This document shows positions 636 to 38,815 of a stretch of 64,000 nucleotides of DNA, piece after piece. Source of the stretch: a virus. Lineage: Duplodnaviria; Caudoviricetes. A model generated the notes under the pieces. The model was given only the letters and a program-made list of their open reading frames with translations, ran no database searches and was not told where the DNA came from. Numbering within the stretch: the first letter of the stretch is position 1; each line of letters opens with the position of its first letter. The stretch spans positions 1,283 to 65,282 of the IMG/VR virus record IMGVR_UViG_3300035696_002894. One strand, 5' to 3'. The position numbers and the translations under genes were made by a program.

Positions 636-2918
636 CTACGTGCTCGTTGTGACGACCGTGTCGCCGATCATGCTGTCAATCACCATGTCGTCCATCGACG
701 GAAGGGTCGTGACGAGCAGGAGGAAGCGCCAGATGCCGAGCGAGGTCGGGGCGATGCCTCCTGCGGGTGCGATGTTCGGCGTCTTCGTGTCGAGATAGAA
801 CCCCGCGATACGCTGCTGATTCAGGTTTTGAGGACTGAGCAATCCGATCATGAACTGCCGGATCATCAGCGTTGCCGCCTGCTGCCGGGCGATTGTCATC
901 AGCTTCTTACAGAAGCCGTCGAGCGCACTCGTAAGCGAGTCCTGGATGTAGTCCGCCATCCTGCGGCGATGGATCGGCGCGAGCGATGGATATGTGCTCG
1001 GGTTCACGCTCGTCACACCACTCTGGAACACCAGCGTGCCGCTCGTGAACTTCGGCGCGCAGATCCCGTTCGCCTTGAAGTTTATGTAGTCGTTGACCGA
1101 GAACGGGTTGCCGCCGTTGACGTTCGGCTCGAGTGCGATCGCCGCGCCCGTGACCGCCGTTAGCTGTCCTGGGTTCTCCTCCGGGTTGAGTTGCGACATC
1201 ACGCTCGCGCAATAGCCATCGCTCCCAACGGTCACAATGCCGGTCGACGTGAAGCCCGTCCCACCCACGATCCCGATGGTCGCGATGGCGGGCACGCTCT
1301 GCGTCACACCCGGATAGTTGTAGATGATCCTGTCGTACGATGTCGCCCCAACGCCAGGAGACGCGACCGAGCTTTCCGCAACGCTCGCGAGCGTTCCGAT
1401 GGGCGGCCGCACACACGCGACACGACCGAGCACGCCGGCGCCGCCATTGTCGCCGAGCGCTTGCATGGTTGCCTTGAGCTGCAACCTGACCGAGTTCGAC
1501 TGCCGTGCTGAAAGCTGGATGTTGATGTCGTGCGAGACGTCATCGGGGTTCAACGTCGCGCCGATGGCTGCCGTGTACGCCGCGTCGATCGCCGACTCCG
1601 ACAACGATGCGCTCACGGTCAGAGGATTGGTCACCGCGAACGAGTCGAGCAGGATAGGCGTGAGCGCATTCACAGCGTTTACCGTTGTCGGAGCGGCACT
1701 CGTCGAAACCGTCACGCCATCGTCCGTTGCCGGACGAATCTTCACGCTGTACGGGCCCGCGCCCGATGCCGTTGTTCCGACGATCGCGGTCGCTGTGACG
1801 TTCACGCTCTGCATGATCACGTACTGGTTTCCAGCAGGTACACCAACGATCGTGCCTGCTGGAATAGTTCCGGCGTTGCCAGTGCTCGCGGCGTCGGTCA
1901 CACCGATCGGGAACCCAAACGCAGTCGCCGTGCTCGTGCTTGCGATCTTGATGCTGTCCGTCGATGGGGTCGACGACGATCGGTAGATGCGTAGCTGCCC
2001 ACTGAGGAGCTGCTCGACGTACGCAGTCGCGACCGCTGTGTGCACGACCGTGTTGATCTCGGACGGCATGACCGCCGCGATGTTCGCGACGTTTCCACCG
2101 CCAGACGTCGTTCCGACCGTCAGGTTCAGAGGCCCGCTGTTTGCCGCGAGCGCAGTGCCCGAGACGACGCGAACCTGTCCCCCCGTTCCTCCTTGGATGC
2201 CTGTGAGCGTCAGCTTCGTGCCGCCGTCGGCACTCGCCATCGTGAAGCCGGCGTACGCGTTGATCCGCGCGATGACCGCGCTCTGGGTCGTGTCCGACCC
2301 CAGGAACGTGACCGTGAAATTCGGCTGTGAATCGATGCCGAGCACGAGCTGCAACCCCGCGGTGATGTTTGCGTACGTTTCTGCCGCCGTGGAGTTGACC
2401 GTCGCCGCCGTCCCCGTGAACGTCACGACCGTCGCGCTACCGCCGTCGATCGAGACGTCGAGATGCGCACCTGTCACTAGCGCGTAGCTGAAGAGGCTGC
2501 CGCCGAGTAGGTTCGCTTGCCTAGTGAGATTCACGGAACCGACGCTCGTGTCGACACGTGTGATGAGCAGACGTGAGTAGCGCTTGCCCGTGAGGTGCAC
2601 AGCACCGTTACCGTTCCAATACTCGGGCACGATCGCGCTGTCAGCGAAGCGTTGCCTCGCGCATGGGTTCTGCCCGACGACCCCGTTGTAGGTATAGCCA
2701 AAGCCCCCGAAGACGCTCGCGAGCTGTGTCGCGCTCGTCACCTCCGTCGTGATGTCGAACGGGCCGTTCTCGAACTCGCCGAGAAGGTTGACCGTTCCAC
2801 TGCCGACGCCGTTGATGCTCTGCGGAGGTGCTCGGTCGAGGATATCGACGCCCTCGATCTGCGTCAGAACACTGTTGCCTGGGTCGTACGTCCAGCGGCG
2901 GACATATCCGGTTGACAT
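636..2918 (-). CDS. contractile tail sheath protein
   Basis: 760 aa; N-terminal SINGVGSGTVNLLGEF, C-terminal RRRMADYIQDSL sheath-type motif; follows neck genes. Confidence 0.75.
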   Translation of the reverse strand: MSTGYVRRWTYDPGNSVLTQIEGVDILDRAPPQSINGVGSGTVNLLGEFENGPFDITTEVTSATQLASVFGGFGYTYNGVVGQNPCARQRFADSAIVPEYWNGNGAVHLTGKRYSRLLITRVDTSVGSVNLTRQANLLGGSLFSYALVTGAHLDVSIDGGSATVVTFTGTAATVNSTAAETYANITAGLQLVLGIDSQPNFTVTFLGSDTTQSAVIARINAYAGFTMASADGGTKLTLTGIQGGTGGQVRVVSGTALAANSGPLNLTVGTTSGGGNVANIAAVMPSEINTVVHTAVATAYVEQLLSGQLRIYRSSSTPSTDSIKIASTSTATAFGFPIGVTDAASTGNAGTIPAGTIVGVPAGNQYVIMQSVNVTATAIVGTTASGAGPYSVKIRPATDDGVTVSTSAAPTTVNAVNALTPILLDSFAVTNPLTVSASLSESAIDAAYTAAIGATLNPDDVSHDINIQLSARQSNSVRLQLKATMQALGDNGGAGVLGRVACVRPPIGTLASVAESSVASPGVGATSYDRIIYNYPGVTQSVPAIATIGIVGGTGFTSTGIVTVGSDGYCASVMSQLNPEENPGQLTAVTGAAIALEPNVNGGNPFSVNDYINFKANGICAPKFTSGTLVFQSGVTSVNPSTYPSLAPIHRRRMADYIQDSLTSALDGFCKKLMTIARQQAATLMIRQFMIGLLSPQNLNQQRIAGFYLDTKTPNIAPAGGIAPTSLGIWRFLLLVTTLPSMDDMVIDSMIGDTVVTTST

Positions 2919-3056
2919 AGCGAATGATCTCCGGAACGCATGAAGCCTTCGTTTCGTGCCCCGGGTACCCGACTATTCTGCCCGCGTCGGTTCGGTAGTG
3001 GAGCGTTGGTCTCACGCGGAGCATCGCAGCCAAGAGACGCGCACCGCAAGGTGAGC

Positions 3057-3866
3057 CTATCGGACGCGCACTTTCGAGAACTCTGGCGTCTCCGTATCCA
3101 TCTCGCCCTGGGGAAGCATGCCAACGACGTTTACGAGGCGCACGATGTCGTACGACATGAACACGCGCAGGAGTCCCTTGAACCTGTTGCGCGCGGCCTG
3201 CGCGTCGTCAGGAAGCTCGGTCCCCTCGAGCATGTAACGCGCCGAGCGCCAATAGTAGTGCGGGGTTCGAAGCAGGAAGCCGTTGCGCTCCTGCGTCGGA
3301 TGAAACGCCTGCTCGAGCCGCGCGAGCAACGCACGGACCTCCGCAAGCGTGCTCGACCAAACCTCGATGGGAACGGTCTCCTCGCGCTCCTCGAGAACGA
3401 GAAGCGCCGTTCCTGGTCCGTGAACATCACGCGTGCTCTCGTCGACGACTGGGTTCATCCCCCTGGGGCGCTCGACGACCGTGCCCGAGAGCGCGACGAG
3501 CGCTGGGAAGATGAGGTCGACCTCAGATGGGGGTCTGTCGACGTGGAAATTCTCCTTTGGTAGCTCGAAATAAACAGGGCAACCTCCGATGGTTCCCGGG
3601 CGACAATACGCAAGGCTCGTTAGGTAGATGCCTAGGCTCTGCAGTGCGGCGGTTCTGCCGTCCACCGGGGTACCATCGAGCAACGCGCGTCGCGGATAGA
3701 CATCGTCGATGGGGGTACCCACCAAGAGCTGACGCGCGCTTGGAGCGGGCGGTACAGCAAGCCGCTGCGGAAGCGGCGGACCCTTCGTCGGCGGCTGATG
3801 CGCAGGCGAGCACGGCGGCGCATTCGGATACGGCGGAAGCGGCGGACGAGGGTACAAATCGCTCAC
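3057..3866 (-). CDS. putative tail completion / neck protein
   Basis: Position between the gp10-like gene and the sheath; start uncertain. Confidence 0.4.
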   Translation of the reverse strand: MSDLYPRPPLPPYPNAPPCSPAHQPPTKGPPLPQRLAVPPAPSARQLLVGTPIDDVYPRRALLDGTPVDGRTAALQSLGIYLTSLAYCRPGTIGGCPVYFELPKENFHVDRPPSEVDLIFPALVALSGTVVERPRGMNPVVDESTRDVHGPGTALLVLEEREETVPIEVWSSTLAEVRALLARLEQAFHPTQERNGFLLRTPHYYWRSARYMLEGTELPDDAQAARNRFKGLLRVFMSYDIVRLVNVVGMLPQGEMDTETPEFSKVRVR

Positions 3867-34658: not shown

Positions 34659-35080
34659 CGCCGCGGACCTCGCCTTTGCCCAGCCTGCTCCGCGTACGCG
34701 TTGGTCAGCGCCTCGACGGCACGCGCCGCGTTCTCCCTCGGCACATCATCGAGAGGCACTACAGTACTCGGCTCGTACGCAGGCACGTTCCAGGCTTCTT
34801 GCTCGAGCACCTTCTCGGCAAACGCAACCGCCGCGTTTGGCTCCTCCCAATCGGGACCGAGCCGCTCGGTCCGCTCGAACCCACGCGCGTAACCCTGCTG
34901 GTACGCCGAGTCCGCGTGCCTCGCAGCGAAGTCGACCCACTCGGCAACGGTTGCTCGCGGAGACGTTGATGCGAACGCCTCGACGAGCTTCCGAAGACGC
35001 GGCGGCGGCTCCGGACCTTCTTCCCACGTGCCGAGATGCTTCTCGACGATACGCTTGAGGCTCTTCAGGAAAGGAGTCAC
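34655..35080 (-). CDS. hypothetical protein
   Basis: GGGAGAG RBS; stop inside a palindrome. Confidence 0.5.
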   Translation of the reverse strand: MTPFLKSLKRIVEKHLGTWEEGPEPPPRLRKLVEAFASTSPRATVAEWVDFAARHADSAYQQGYARGFERTERLGPDWEEPNAAVAFAEKVLEQEAWNVPAYEPSTVVPLDDVPRENAARAVEALTNAYAEQAGQRRGPRR

Positions 35081-35097
35081 CTCTCCCTTGTCGCCTT

Positions 35098-35116
35098 CCT
35101 TGAGGTCGACCTCAAG
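35098..35116. repeat. palindrome variant (19 of 20)
   Basis: Contains the methyltransferase stop codon. Confidence 0.95.
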
Positions 35117-37415
35117 CTCTTGTCACTTGCGAACTTGCCGTAACAGATCCGGCCCGATCCTTGCTCTCTCTCTCTCTCCTGAGCATGCGCTTGTCGAGCA
35201 AGCCGCTGAACACTCCGCCCTTCTGAATCCTCTTCTTCGCGATCTCGATGTACTCGGCTTCCCCTTCGATCCCCATGACCTCATCCCAGCCGGCCTGCAA
35301 GCAACCGATCATCTCGGAACCCGCACCTGAAAAAGGAACGAGAATGCGCCTGGGCTGACCATCCTTGCGCGAAGGGGGGAGCAACATCGTCGCAAGCCAT
35401 CGCGTCAGCTCGATAGGCTTGAGCGTCGGATGCACGTTGGAGACAAGACCGGTTCTTCCAGCGCCAGCGCGCGGTAAGCTAGCCCCTTTACTACCTGGCG
35501 GACATAGTTGATTCACAACTCCAGCCCGTTTCCCATCGCGCAAGGCGCCGACGCCTTGCGCCTTCCCCGGCAACTCATGACACCCCGATTCGCGCTCTGC
35601 ACGCGATACCTTCGTCGTGTAGAAGAAGCGCGAACTTCCAGAATGCTCCGCGTCGAGCATGGCTGCCGCCTCTTCATCGAACATGACGTTCGCAGGCCAG
35701 CGACCCACTGCACTCCGTCCTTCACTCTCACCATTCGCAATCGACGACCACATTCCAGAATGCGTCGGCGACGCATTCCACCGTTCTTCATCTCCAACCC
35801 TGCACGCATCGATCGCCAGCGCACCCGTACCCCAGCGCTGCACGTTGTCCGCGAACGTCCCGTCGAGCGGCTTCATCGCGAGCAACACAGGCTCGTATGC
35901 GGGCTTCAAAGCCGTCCCATAACCAGAGCACTGCTGAGGCTCAGCAGTGATCGCTTCACCCTTCACGCTTCTCTCGAAGTTCGGACCGCCCATCCCCACG
36001 TTCTCACTCTTCTGCTTACCAGCACGACCTCGCCAGTGACCCTTCTGCTTGTCGAGCGCCTTCGCAATATCGCTGCTCTTCGGAAAGCCCGAATTACCAG
36101 TCACGAACGCCTTACCGTTCCGACGCGCAACAAACGCCCCGGTCGGAACATTCACGCACCAAACGACACCTTCAAGATAGAAGGGCTCGAACCTCGCCAA
36201 ATCGGCTCGGGTGAACCGCGATGCTCGAATAACTTGTGATCGCGGTTCGTGGCAAAAAGCATCAAATTCCCCAAGCGATTGTCCGCCGGATCGCGATTGC
36301 CATGATGAACGATCTCCACACGCATCAAGCAACGCCCTATCGCCATAGCCACGAACAGTCGATGCTCCATCACATAACCATCCTTCCGAGCCATCGACAG
36401 AAACTCCTTCGGGCATCGCACATACCGCACACCCGCATAGTTTCCGTGCTTGCGGAAGATCGTCACTCCTCCCTTCCATGCAGGATTGCTCGCGCCCGAC
36501 ATGCGCACACTGAACCGCGCTTTCGCTTCCAGCGACCACGCAGCACGCCCCTTGTGAGAGTGCTTCATCAATTCTCGTGCTCGAAGCACTCCTCGACAGT
36601 GCTTCGAGCACGTCACCCCCTTGCGAATTGCACGCATCTGCGAACGAAAACGCCACACCTTCTTCTTGCACACTGTGCACAGCACATTGACTAACCCCGC
36701 ACGCTGCTCCTTCGGCTTGCCGGTGCCCATTCGATTGCGACTCTGCACATCGCCAAGACACCCCTTCCCGCAATTCTCCTTGCGGTTCACCTGAGCGATC
36801 GTGTGACACGGGAAGAGCTTCGAGCAATTCCTGCACACCTTCCAGAACGGGTACACATGCTCCCGCGCCGACCTCGTATGCCTGCTCGAATACGTACGCT
36901 CCGCCTTGTTCAACAAGACAACGATGCGTGCGGGTAACAATTTGGTCTGTAAAATCCGATCGAATTCGATAAGCGGTATCCGCGTAGGGATAAACGAAGA
37001 GCTGACGGATCGGTAACCATTCAAAGCTGTCACGCTCAACGTCGTAGCACATCGCGAGACGCCCTTCCGTAGCTTCAAGGTAAGGCACCCATCCCCCATC
37101 GACGAGGATCTCGGTGTCCTCGCTCAAGCACCCGTGCAGATACATCAGCAGATCGGTCGGCAAGAACCCTGCATCCTCAACATTCACGACAAGACGATGA
37201 AATGTCCTGGGACCACCGAACAACAAGATGTGCGTCCCGGGCTTGCAGACCCGTAGCAACTCACTCCACACGTTCGCGCTCGGCATCTCGTAATCCCAAC
37301 GCGCACCCATGAACTTATACGCGTAGGGTGGATCGCTCAGCACCGCGTCGAAGTGATCATCAGGGAACGTCTTGAGCGTCTTGCGCACGTCCCCGTGCTC
37401 AATCCTCCAGGTCAT
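35112..37415 (-). CDS. DNA methyltransferase (N6-A/N4-C, beta class) containing an intein
   Basis: SDPPY; spliced junction YLHG|SGFPKS; HPTLKP; LVPFSGAGS. Confidence 0.9.
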   Translation of the reverse strand: MTWRIEHGDVRKTLKTFPDDHFDAVLSDPPYAYKFMGARWDYEMPSANVWSELLRVCKPGTHILLFGGPRTFHRLVVNVEDAGFLPTDLLMYLHGCLSEDTEILVDGGWVPYLEATEGRLAMCYDVERDSFEWLPIRQLFVYPYADTAYRIRSDFTDQIVTRTHRCLVEQGGAYVFEQAYEVGAGACVPVLEGVQELLEALPVSHDRSGEPQGELREGVSWRCAESQSNGHRQAEGAACGVSQCAVHSVQEEGVAFSFADACNSQGGDVLEALSRSASSTRIDEALSQGACCVVAGSESAVQCAHVGREQSCMEGRSDDLPQARKLCGCAVCAMPEGVSVDGSEGWLCDGASTVRGYGDRALLDACGDRSSWQSRSGGQSLGEFDAFCHEPRSQVIRASRFTRADLARFEPFYLEGVVWCVNVPTGAFVARRNGKAFVTGNSGFPKSSDIAKALDKQKGHWRGRAGKQKSENVGMGGPNFERSVKGEAITAEPQQCSGYGTALKPAYEPVLLAMKPLDGTFADNVQRWGTGALAIDACRVGDEERWNASPTHSGMWSSIANGESEGRSAVGRWPANVMFDEEAAAMLDAEHSGSSRFFYTTKVSRAERESGCHELPGKAQGVGALRDGKRAGVVNQLCPPGSKGASLPRAGAGRTGLVSNVHPTLKPIELTRWLATMLLPPSRKDGQPRRILVPFSGAGSEMIGCLQAGWDEVMGIEGEAEYIEIAKKRIQKGGVFSGLLDKRMLRRERESKDRAGSVTASSQVTRA
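36093..37130 (-). mobile_element. intein in methyltransferase (346 aa)
   Basis: Starts CLSEDTEILVDGGW, block B IVTRTHR, ends VWCVNVPTGAFVARRNGKAFVTGN|S. Confidence 0.9.
36152..36856 (-). CDS. HNH endonuclease with Zn-finger repeats, in an alternate frame inside the intein
   Basis: CRNC...C..C, CTVC...CSKHC, NPAWKGG, GYVMEHRL...IVHHGNRDPADNRLGNLML; likely GTG start at 36856 (frame open from 37099). Confidence 0.85.
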   Translation of the reverse strand: MYPFWKVCRNCSKLFPCHTIAQVNRKENCGKGCLGDVQSRNRMGTGKPKEQRAGLVNVLCTVCKKKVWRFRSQMRAIRKGVTCSKHCRGVLRARELMKHSHKGRAAWSLEAKARFSVRMSGASNPAWKGGVTIFRKHGNYAGVRYVRCPKEFLSMARKDGYVMEHRLFVAMAIGRCLMRVEIVHHGNRDPADNRLGNLMLFATNRDHKLFEHRGSPEPIWRGSSPSILKVSFGA

Positions 37416-37425
37416 GAGGTCGCTC

Positions 37426-38091
37426 TCAAGCCGCGCGCTTCTTCGAAGGCTTCTTCTTGCTCAGCCCCAACGCGACCGCAACAAGCTGCCCCGTCATCTG
37501 CTTCGTCGTCTTCGCGTTCGCGCTCAAGAGCTTCTTCACCTTGTCCCTGAGCGCAACCGTCTCGAACGCAATACTGAGCATGATGCTCTTGCCGAAACTG
37601 CCCGGCTCTTCTCCGCCATCCGGGAGCGACAGCGGTACACGCTCCGGCTCCACAAGGCGGATGAACTTCTCCGCCTCCTGCGCCGCAAAGCCAAGCAACG
37701 AGAACTCGTCGGTCGGTAGCGGCATCTTCTCGTCGTCGTAGATGTCGACAAGAAGCTCGCCGAGCAGCCTCGCTTCGAACTCCCCCTGCACCTTGTTCAG
37801 CTTGATGTTGATCTTGCGCGCCGTCTTGTCGTCGACGTCGAGCACCGTGCACGGCAAGTCGGGCACCGGCTTCGCAGCCTCGACACAAAGCTCCTTGCAC
37901 GCACGCAAACGCTGATGCCCACCGATGATCTTGAGCCCCTTCTTCTGCACCACGAGCGGCTCAAGGAAGCCGTGCTCCCGAATGCTTTCCTTCAGCGCTT
38001 CGAACTTCTCAGGGCTGATCGCACGCGGATTGTATGCGCTCGGATTCAGCTCCGCTGCGCGCAGCATGACGCTCTCGTGAACCTTGAACAT
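37426..38091 (-). CDS. ParB/Srx N-terminal domain protein
   Basis: YNPRAIS...LKESIREHGFLEPLVV...IIGGHQRL. Confidence 0.75.
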   Translation of the reverse strand: MFKVHESVMLRAAELNPSAYNPRAISPEKFEALKESIREHGFLEPLVVQKKGLKIIGGHQRLRACKELCVEAAKPVPDLPCTVLDVDDKTARKINIKLNKVQGEFEARLLGELLVDIYDDEKMPLPTDEFSLLGFAAQEAEKFIRLVEPERVPLSLPDGGEEPGSFGKSIMLSIAFETVALRDKVKKLLSANAKTTKQMTGQLVAVALGLSKKKPSKKRAA

Positions 38092-38215
38092 AGCTCTTGT
38101 ATCTCCTTCTCCGAAGATGCAGATTACGCCGTGTTCGAGGGACAAAGCACGTTTTGAGGGTGCTCGAGAGGTTGTCATACCCGAGCAAGACAGCACGGCG
38201 CCGATCGATCGTACG

Positions 38216-38815
38216 TCAGCCAGAGGCGAGACAGGGCAAGCCGAGTGTGTGTCGTGCGGCATTGCAGACGATGAACGCGTCTCTCGTGTCTTCGTCTGGA
38301 AAGGGTGCGCCCAGTTTCTCGAACTCGCTCTTGATGAGCGCCTTGGTTTCCTTCCGGCTCATTCTCGGGAGCTTTCCGAAGAGGAGTTTACGCGCGGATG
38401 AGGCGACGATGGGAACGGTTTCGATCTTCAGCGACGTATGGAGTGTTTCCTTGATCGCACCGACGAGTTCGGCGACGTGGGTGATGGCGTTTGGGGCGAA
38501 GCTAAAGGCGTACTGCTCGACGAAGGCTTTGGTGACGCCTTCCCTGACGGCAAGTTTCCACACGGCATGAACGATGGCGGAGGTTCTCTCTTGTCCTCTC
38601 AGCGCGCCTTGTTCTCCGAAGCGCTGGAAGGAGATGGCTGTCCACGGTGCAGATGGGTTCCAGCCTTTCGGGAGCACGACTGCGGCGGAGCCTGTGAGCG
38701 AGAGGTCGAGCCCGAGAACGGCGTGGTCTGTTGGGGTTCGGTCCTGGGCGTCTTGGAAAGCAGGTGTGGCTCTGGGAAAGAGCACCTGGTGCATGGGTAG
38801 GGTGTGTCTGGGCAT
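38216..38815 (-). CDS. ruvC: RuvC-like Holliday junction resolvase
   Basis: VLGLDLSLTGSA, FVEQY, DTRDAF acidic catalytic pattern. Confidence 0.75.
   Translation of the reverse strand: MPRHTLPMHQVLFPRATPAFQDAQDRTPTDHAVLGLDLSLTGSAAVVLPKGWNPSAPWTAISFQRFGEQGALRGQERTSAIVHAVWKLAVREGVTKAFVEQYAFSFAPNAITHVAELVGAIKETLHTSLKIETVPIVASSARKLLFGKLPRMSRKETKALIKSEFEKLGAPFPDEDTRDAFIVCNAARHTLGLPCLASG

Follow-up and report, generated by a model that had tools for sequence, protein, structure and literature searches.

Inteins with an overprinted endonuclease gene form a class that has been described only in 2025-26, and a well-supported example of this class is analyzed here: an intein, with a zinc-finger HNH gene in a second reading frame of the same DNA, that interrupts a DNA methyltransferase gene in the IMG/VR provirus record IMGVR_UViG_3300035696_002894 (65 kb). 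The stretch analyzed, referred to below as the window, comprises 64,000 nucleotides of that record (positions 1,283 to 65,282; Duplodnaviria, Caudoviricetes). Among the closest described systems are the actinophage inteins of Gosselin, Arsenault and Gogarten (bioRxiv 10.1101/2025.01.02.630785), in which the endonuclease lies in another frame or on the other strand. Their types include an endonuclease VII-like enzyme in frame 3 of the same strand, antisense LAGLIDADG or VSR enzymes, and HNH inteins that are in frame; the non-canonical inteins are hosted by DNA polymerase, minor capsid, terminase and thymidylate synthase genes. In mycobacteriophage methylases, an HNH embedded out of frame (frame 3) without a splicing element has been described as the ShiLan domain (Arsenault, Gosselin and Gogarten 2025, PMC11855218). 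Finally, Phillips, DeSimone and Gogarten (bioRxiv 10.64898/2026.09.14.751524) report a cyanobacterial dnaX intein with an out-of-frame LAGLIDADG endonuclease in a '+2ORF'. Both the principle of an out-of-frame endonuclease in an intein and that of a hidden HNH in phage methylases were, in other words, already published in 2025-26.

Our analysis indicates that the methylase in the window very probably carries a class-1 intein at YG/SGFPKS, and that the homing endonuclease is a separate zinc-finger HNH gene overprinted at +1 rather than a domain of the intein polypeptide. As in the actinophage inteins, the splicing blocks flank an endonuclease open reading frame (ORF) that is read in another frame, no stop interrupts the intein frame, and no structure is predicted for the middle of the intein; for those inteins, too, invasion by a free-standing endonuclease has been proposed and evidence of continued transfer exists. 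The window differs from them in combining a zinc-finger HNH at +1 with an N6/N4 methylase as the host gene, in that its family extends far beyond actinophages (viral and genome contigs with a GC content of 0.30-0.68), and in that the overlap extends into the folded N-domain of the HINT fold. The dnaX intein likewise has an overlapping endonuclease ORF and a frame-dependent pattern of selection (low on the endonuclease frame, relaxed on the intein frame), and mini-intein alleles co-exist with it as they do in the window's family; however, it combines a LAGLIDADG '+2ORF' with a cellular replication gene, whereas the window combines an HNH at +1 with a phage methylase. A literature search found no paper on an HNH at +1 inside a methylase intein.

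The methylase, its intein and the overlapping HNH frame

The methylase and the intein share one reading frame on the minus strand (frame A), and the HNH gene is read from the same strand one base over (frame B, +1). The features are as follows.

35112-37415, minus strand: methylase precursor in frame A, a single ORF of 767 residues, beta-class N6/N4 DNA methyltransferase, intein included
37131-37415, minus strand: N-extein, 95 residues, C-terminal end ...LMYLHG
36093-37130, minus strand: predicted class-1 intein, 346 residues, CLSEDTE...FVTGN, then SGFPKS
35115-36092, minus strand: C-extein, 326 residues, begins SGFPKS and includes a variable loop up to GYGTALKP
36152-37099, minus strand: HNH homing-endonuclease ORF in frame B, 315 residues from the only ATG (37099)

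Frame A contains the methylase motifs DPPY, close to the N-terminus, and FSGAGS, close to the C-terminus. PF01555 is found in most of the homologues that have this intein, and the name DNA modification methylase is attached to several. A preliminary description of this DNA, made from the sequence alone, had placed a 346-residue intein at YLHG/SGFPKS (36093-37130), and these coordinates proved exact. In relatives the extein ends at the same place, as (W)xYG, and in intein-free alleles, namely the loop-type loci described below and gp64 of Mycobacterium phage Mantra, YGSGFPKS is uninterrupted.

The N- and C-terminal splicing blocks noted in the preliminary description are borne out by the terminal residues, by block B and by the predicted fold. 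The residues at the junctions are those of a class-1 intein (Cys1, N346 in a terminal Gly-Asn, and Ser at +1), and block B, T-x-x-H, reads TRTH in the window. C1, H69 and N346 are invariant among 49 sequences, and in all 59 inteins checked in relatives the first residues are CL, the last are TGN and the extein continues with SGFPK. Searches of frame A did not recognise the intein with Pfam and gave no match to an intein with PHROGs, and a fold search was therefore needed. In the AlphaFold model of frame A (49-sequence alignment), residues 1-113 and 300-346 form a beta-rich domain with a predicted local distance difference test score (pLDDT) of 91-98, and residues ~120-295, at pLDDT 40-50, appear as a disordered read-through of the HNH gene, ~180 residues in length. 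The top 10 Foldseek matches of this model are nine inteins and one Hedgehog HINT domain, with a probability of 1.00. Judged by the model, the frame-A insert has the HINT fold.

The window does not hold a ShiLan domain, because a complete HINT domain is predicted in it. The two share the host enzyme family and a host frame that is stop-free over an out-of-frame zinc-finger HNH gene, and the HNH of Mantra gp64, which is of ShiLan type, is a distant homologue of the window HNH (29% identity, E 6e-7). However, the ShiLan insert is retained in the methylase, after HEPVVVARKP and in frame 3 (+2), whereas the window HNH lies at +1 within a true intein at YG/SGFPKS. Besides its +2 HNH, Mantra gp64 (L002, 1461-3785) contains an in-frame LAGLIDADG-type insert (LAGLIDGEGCF) between DPPY and VLKPGG, which is probably the known intein of this gene family.

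Frame B stays open for 324 codons, from 37123 until the stop at 36152-36154, which falls within the coding region of the intein C-terminal block. The preliminary description had counted about 230 codons open in both frames; that number holds for the ~234 codons with HNH homology, and the joint opening of frames A and B is longer, at ~320 codons. The domain layout of frame B is two Cys4 zinc ribbons followed by an HNH_3 catalytic core, in agreement with the zinc-finger HNH nuclease that had been proposed one base over on the same strand. Pfam HNH_3 matches at 25.8 bits (curated cut-off 24.8), and five PHROG HNH families match with E values of 6e-13 to 1.5e-5. In the profile search of both frames, which had been suggested as a check, HNH_3 scored above its cut-off in frame B, and in frame A the methylase stayed below threshold and the intein went unrecognised. 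The residues H246, H265, H266, N274, N285 and H288 of frame B are invariant in the family alignment and the zinc ligands C141, C144, C164 and C168 nearly so; all of them occur in the window, whose copy is part of that alignment and therefore has the invariant residues by definition.

In the AlphaFold model of frame B (38 sequences), residues 1-33 are disordered and residues ~40 to 300 ordered. The best match of this model in a whole-PDB search with VIA-align is I-HmuI (PDB 1u3e), a weak one (Z 5.0, 79 residues). The HNH call rests on Pfam, the PHROGs and this weak match, because Foldseek found no significant match to the whole frame-B model in the PDB and a profile search of PDB sequences with frame B gave only weak zinc-finger matches. 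I-HmuI has an HNH (beta-beta-alpha-metal) catalytic core, of a kind that the window HNH may share; unlike the window HNH, it is intron-encoded and is without the two N-terminal Cys4 ribbons. An intron reading of the window insert was considered and dropped: Rfam has no match in 35000-37600, and an intron leaves the stop-free host frame unexplained.

Relatives and selection on the two frames

Relatives were searched with the HNH frame alone, so that the resulting set was not selected for an open intein frame. The protein database contains 639 homologous clusters (E < 1e-5), and the closest relative of the window copy is ~60% identical to it. A scan of IMG/VR gave 115 relatives, of which 80 were kept and classified by tblastn of extein, intein and HNH pieces. 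In 62 of these 80 loci the N-extein, both intein blocks and the C-extein lie in one frame and the HNH lies at +1; in all 62, at a locus GC of 0.30-0.65, frame A runs through the entire HNH ORF without a stop. The same layout, an open frame A included, is present in 11 of 22 loci on genome contigs; the bins of these contigs range over many bacterial phyla and include a Methanospirillum metagenome-assembled genome. In addition, a tblastn search against phages revealed the uncultured jumbo phage LR756508.1 (GC 0.41), which has the same methylase and intein site with both frames open, and an HNH at +1 that is 41.5% identical to the window HNH. Across viral contigs, genome contigs and the jumbo phage, the overall GC range of the layout is 0.30-0.68. 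An in-frame version of the HNH was not found among the longer proteins searched, which is weak evidence of absence. The sole longer-protein fusion, P0121 (440 residues, from a Logan assembly), is an A-to-B frameshifted read-through that runs to the HNH stop and is without the C-terminal splicing block; its single frameshift, within the overlap, is either a mutation or an error. Another locus, L035 (2529-3809), has an intein of 427 residues, and the N-terminal region of its HNH ORF is expanded with extra Cys-rich repeats.

Given the +1 arrangement, a stop in frame A is possible only where a T-ending frame-B codon precedes a codon starting with AA, AG or GA. The 71 distinct loci contain 3986 such risky codons, none of which is preceded by a T-ending codon, whereas 24.7% of codons elsewhere end in T. 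The probability of an open frame A, calculated analytically, has a per-locus median of 2.6e-8 and is 2.6e-8 for the window, and none of 2000 synonymous shuffles of the window's HNH codons left frame A open. The third frame of the same DNA contains 18 stops and its longest open run is 40 codons, so that there is no third overlapping gene. These stops and the outcome of the shuffles (0/2000) exclude a double-open frame that arose by chance. Selection keeps frame A stop-free, as the preliminary description had supposed; its supposition is upheld by the stop avoidance, by the structure predictions and by the frame-specific switch in substitution described next.

Substitution rates at the three codon phases indicate which frame is constrained along the locus. 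In the exteins and splicing blocks the fastest phase is A3, the wobble position of frame A (0.33-0.50), and in the HNH core it is A1, which is the third position of frame B (B3), at 0.371 versus 0.186 and 0.151, with A3 the slowest (11 disjoint locus pairs in each case). On a finer scale (13 pairs), A3 dominates until ~51 codons before the zinc-finger motif YPFWK.C, all three phases are slow at codons -50 to -6 relative to that motif, B3 dominates from -5 to ~7 codons before the HNH stop, and A3-dominance returns sharply after the stop (0.46-0.54). Selection keeps frame B as a protein at the level of the family, and the combination of purifying selection on the endonuclease frame with relaxed selection on the overlapped intein frame is likewise a family-level result, not one obtained from the window copy alone. 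The preliminary description had made selection on the HNH frame a point on which its account could fail, and these phase-specific rates sustain it. A stop in the HNH frame occurs in just one of 83 loci. In that locus, L022 (3001-3654), the stop falls at match codon 22 and leaves the intein frame unbroken; it represents either a decaying copy or a sequencing error.

The finer scale also reveals that ~50 codons at the 5' side of the HNH frame are constrained in both frames. In the window they correspond to the following feature.

36857-37006, minus strand: doubly constrained stretch, ~50 codons upstream of the first zinc finger

This stretch encodes the HINT block-B strands in frame A and a predicted two-helix N-terminal segment in frame B. 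All three phases are slow here in relatives (0.145/0.093/0.176), compared with 0.33-0.50 at the wobble position where frame A alone is constrained. The frame-B helices (residues 43-70), which come from the same DNA as the HINT block-B strands, are modelled by AlphaFold at pLDDT 95-97.

Loop-type copies, mini-inteins and mobility

The same HNH family also occurs without an intein. In 17 viral and 7 genome loci it lies at +1, mostly as a shorter version, within the variable loop that separates SGFPKS from GTALKP and that in the window is the C-extein loop up to GYGTALKP.

L053-L055, L058-L060, L063, L065, L069, L071, L072 and L075-L080: loop-type viral loci (for example L053, 2950-3444)
L095 and L097-L102: loop-type genome loci

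In these loci the host methylase frame is again stop-free and the short form has a clear ATG start. They resemble ShiLan in principle, although their site and frame differ from those of the published ShiLan. Two further loci contain free-standing copies. In L074 (2557-3075) a short-form HNH ORF, bounded by stops, stands between N- and C-terminal methylase pieces that are in different frames; this locus may reflect a gene that is split or broken, or an unrecognised intron. The Curtobacterium pusillum plasmid pCPAA3 (CP018784.1; L096, 1379-3429) has an uninterrupted, shorter methylase (1379-2515), immediately followed by a long-form HNH of the same family in a separate, overlapping ORF. In an HNH tree built with a quick method, loop-type copies are nested within intein-type copies at at least two places, with support too weak to give a direction.

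Mini-inteins are present at the same methylase site as well: four of 156-160 residues, together with partial forms. The DNA was read for two of them, L106 (1915-2394, 160 residues) and L107 (1816-2292, 159 residues). Their +1 frame contains the HNH 5' leader and half of the first zinc finger and then jumps to the HNH C-terminal tail; both are clean internal deletions of an HNH-bearing intein and not uninvaded ancestors. Two other sequences, P0148 and P0155, are apparent partial deletions. The preliminary description had proposed that a free-standing HNH invaded a mini-intein out of frame. Mini-inteins as support for that step were rejected, since the two whose DNA was read are deletion derivatives. 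Free-standing HNH relatives do exist, and invasion of an intein by such a gene is still a reasonable inference.

The intein and its HNH gene also appear to move as a unit. Locus L011 is 98-100% identical to L012 from the first intein base to the HNH stop and 43-88% identical outside this segment. The high-identity stretch shared by L011 with L012 and L013 spans locus positions ~2727-3663, and its 3' boundary lies inside the intein, right after the HNH stop. This pattern is evidence of a recent lateral transfer of the intein plus HNH unit between L011 and L012, as opposed to the window's own copy.

A broader, more tentative possibility is that the HNH family is a mobile cassette, frame-transparent and independent of the intein. 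According to this reading the cassette moved more than once between the intein and the loop ~10-15 codons downstream, its first ~47 residues (the predicted two-helix module) are dual-coded with the folded HINT block-B strands wherever it lies in the intein, and an in-frame form never arose. The HNH being always at +1 in the methylase ORF, with the host frame stop-free, is what this proposal draws on, and we regard it as possible but rather doubtful as a whole. If it were true, the family would represent genuine dual coding of two structured segments, kept across bacterial and archaeal viromes.

As for the window's own surroundings, no close relative of the window gene came up when the phage collection was searched at the DNA level, where the sole match, of 118 bp, was to mycobacteriophage methylases. 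A gene with a ParB_N domain (37426-38262, minus strand; Pfam E 3.7e-9) adjoins the methylase on its upstream side, and the next ORF upstream (38216-38815, minus strand), which overlaps it, has no Pfam match.

Translation of the HNH gene and weighing of the evidence

The start of the HNH gene is one of three points on which the preliminary description has to be revised, along with the extent of the overlap and the derived nature of the mini-inteins. It had proposed a ribosome-binding site, GGGAG, ahead of a GTG codon.

36854-36864, minus strand: previously proposed start, consisting of GGGAG (36864-36860), CAT and GTG (36856-36854)

The spacing between GGGAG and GTG 36856 is 3 nucleotides only, which is too short for a usual Shine-Dalgarno (SD) sequence, and this GTG is found in only part of the family. 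GTG 36856 is an unlikely start because it lies downstream of the conserved N-terminal segment of frame B, where constraint begins ~47-50 codons further upstream. Relatives offer better candidates. In 42 of 42 distinct long-form loci, at least the 50 codons that precede the zinc finger are free of frame-B stops; with a stop density of 4.2% per codon in the +1 frame of the exteins, the median per-locus probability of such an open leader is 0.16. An ATG occurs 46-52 codons upstream of the first zinc finger in 28 of 45 distinct long-form relatives, often right after an upstream stop, and half of these 28 have an SD-like motif (in several, AAGGAG ~8 nucleotides upstream). In the short-form relatives the start is plain: an ATG immediately follows the upstream stop and precedes the first Cys by ~8-10 codons. 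On the strength of the open leader, the upstream ATG and SD sites and the short-form ATG starts, the family appears to use independent internal initiation, and we favour an HNH N-terminus that is ~47 residues longer than previously assumed. For the window itself, the candidate starts are ATG 37099 or one of the TTG and GTG codons at 37078-37024.

The HNH could instead be made by programmed +1 ribosomal frameshifting, as a fusion of N-extein, HINT N-domain and HNH. Such a mechanism could account for the ~40% of long-form loci, the window included, that have no ATG at -46 to -52, for four loci whose open frame-B leader contains not a single ATG, and for the openness of that leader in every locus. 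However, many relatives have a textbook SD and ATG at a fixed position, and the short forms start with an ATG after a stop; no slippery or stop-containing shift site is evident, and frame A has neither a stop nor an obvious pause codon there; and the fusion would be without the C-terminal splicing blocks. We consider frameshifting improbable.

A similarly small chance attaches to the idea that the HNH frame of the window is an untranslated relic, so that only the intein frame matters and the element is turning into a mini-intein. At the position where the family usually starts, the window has neither a good ribosome-binding site nor a good ATG, and decay does occur in the family, as the deletion derivatives and the one copy with a stop attest. 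Against this, frame B of the window is intact over 324 codons, its set of invariant and nearly invariant residues is complete, with both Cys4 clusters and the HNH core among them, and the frame is under purifying selection at the family level. There is almost no chance that a sequencing or assembly artefact, in which two compensating indels mask an ordinary intein with an in-frame HNH, accounts for the layout: in-frame HNH inteins are known (cited in bioRxiv 10.1101/2025.01.02.630785) and the window is a single metagenomic provirus record, but more than 70 independent assemblies have the same +1 offset, which excludes the two-indel case that the preliminary description had itself raised, frame A is stop-free against strong odds in each of them, and the sole fusion found is a frameshifted read-through without the C-terminal splicing block.

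Several observations weigh against the reading we prefer, that is, a class-1 intein with a separate HNH gene overprinted at +1. The loci are related, so that the pooled statistics are not fully independent. The match of Pfam N6_N4_Mtase to the window methylase is weak, at a sub-threshold 20.6 bits. The penultimate residue of the intein is Gly345, invariant in the family, and not the usual His. Conservation that frame A imposes may be part of the reason for the confidence of the frame-B helices. Finally, the window lacks the ATG and SD site of many relatives, and its ATG 37099 has only GAGGA, 16 nucleotides upstream. As to the penultimate residue, His is common but not universal at this position among splicing inteins, and its absence was not treated as excluding membership.

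If the preferred reading is correct, translation of frame A would yield a precursor whose HINT domain is in two halves, linked by ~180 disordered residues read out of frame from the HNH gene, and protein splicing would then cut out the whole insert and restore the methylase. Internal initiation in frame B would produce the HNH endonuclease from the window copy. The endonuclease would presumably nick or cut intein-free methylase alleles of co-resident phages near the sequence coding for SGFPKS, and repair of the break may copy the intein and the HNH gene together.

For a specialist the window may hold little surprise, although the picture at the level of the family is richer than published accounts. 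The layout is not confined to actinophages; it is the normal, and apparently the only, state of a large intein family that comprises hundreds of protein clusters. Gene callers systematically overlook such endonucleases, since they report just one gene of the pair, and the mini-inteins at this methylase site are to be read as decay products. The family constitutes a natural experiment on long-term overlapping coding, and it supports the view of the splicing domain and the endonuclease as separate partners.

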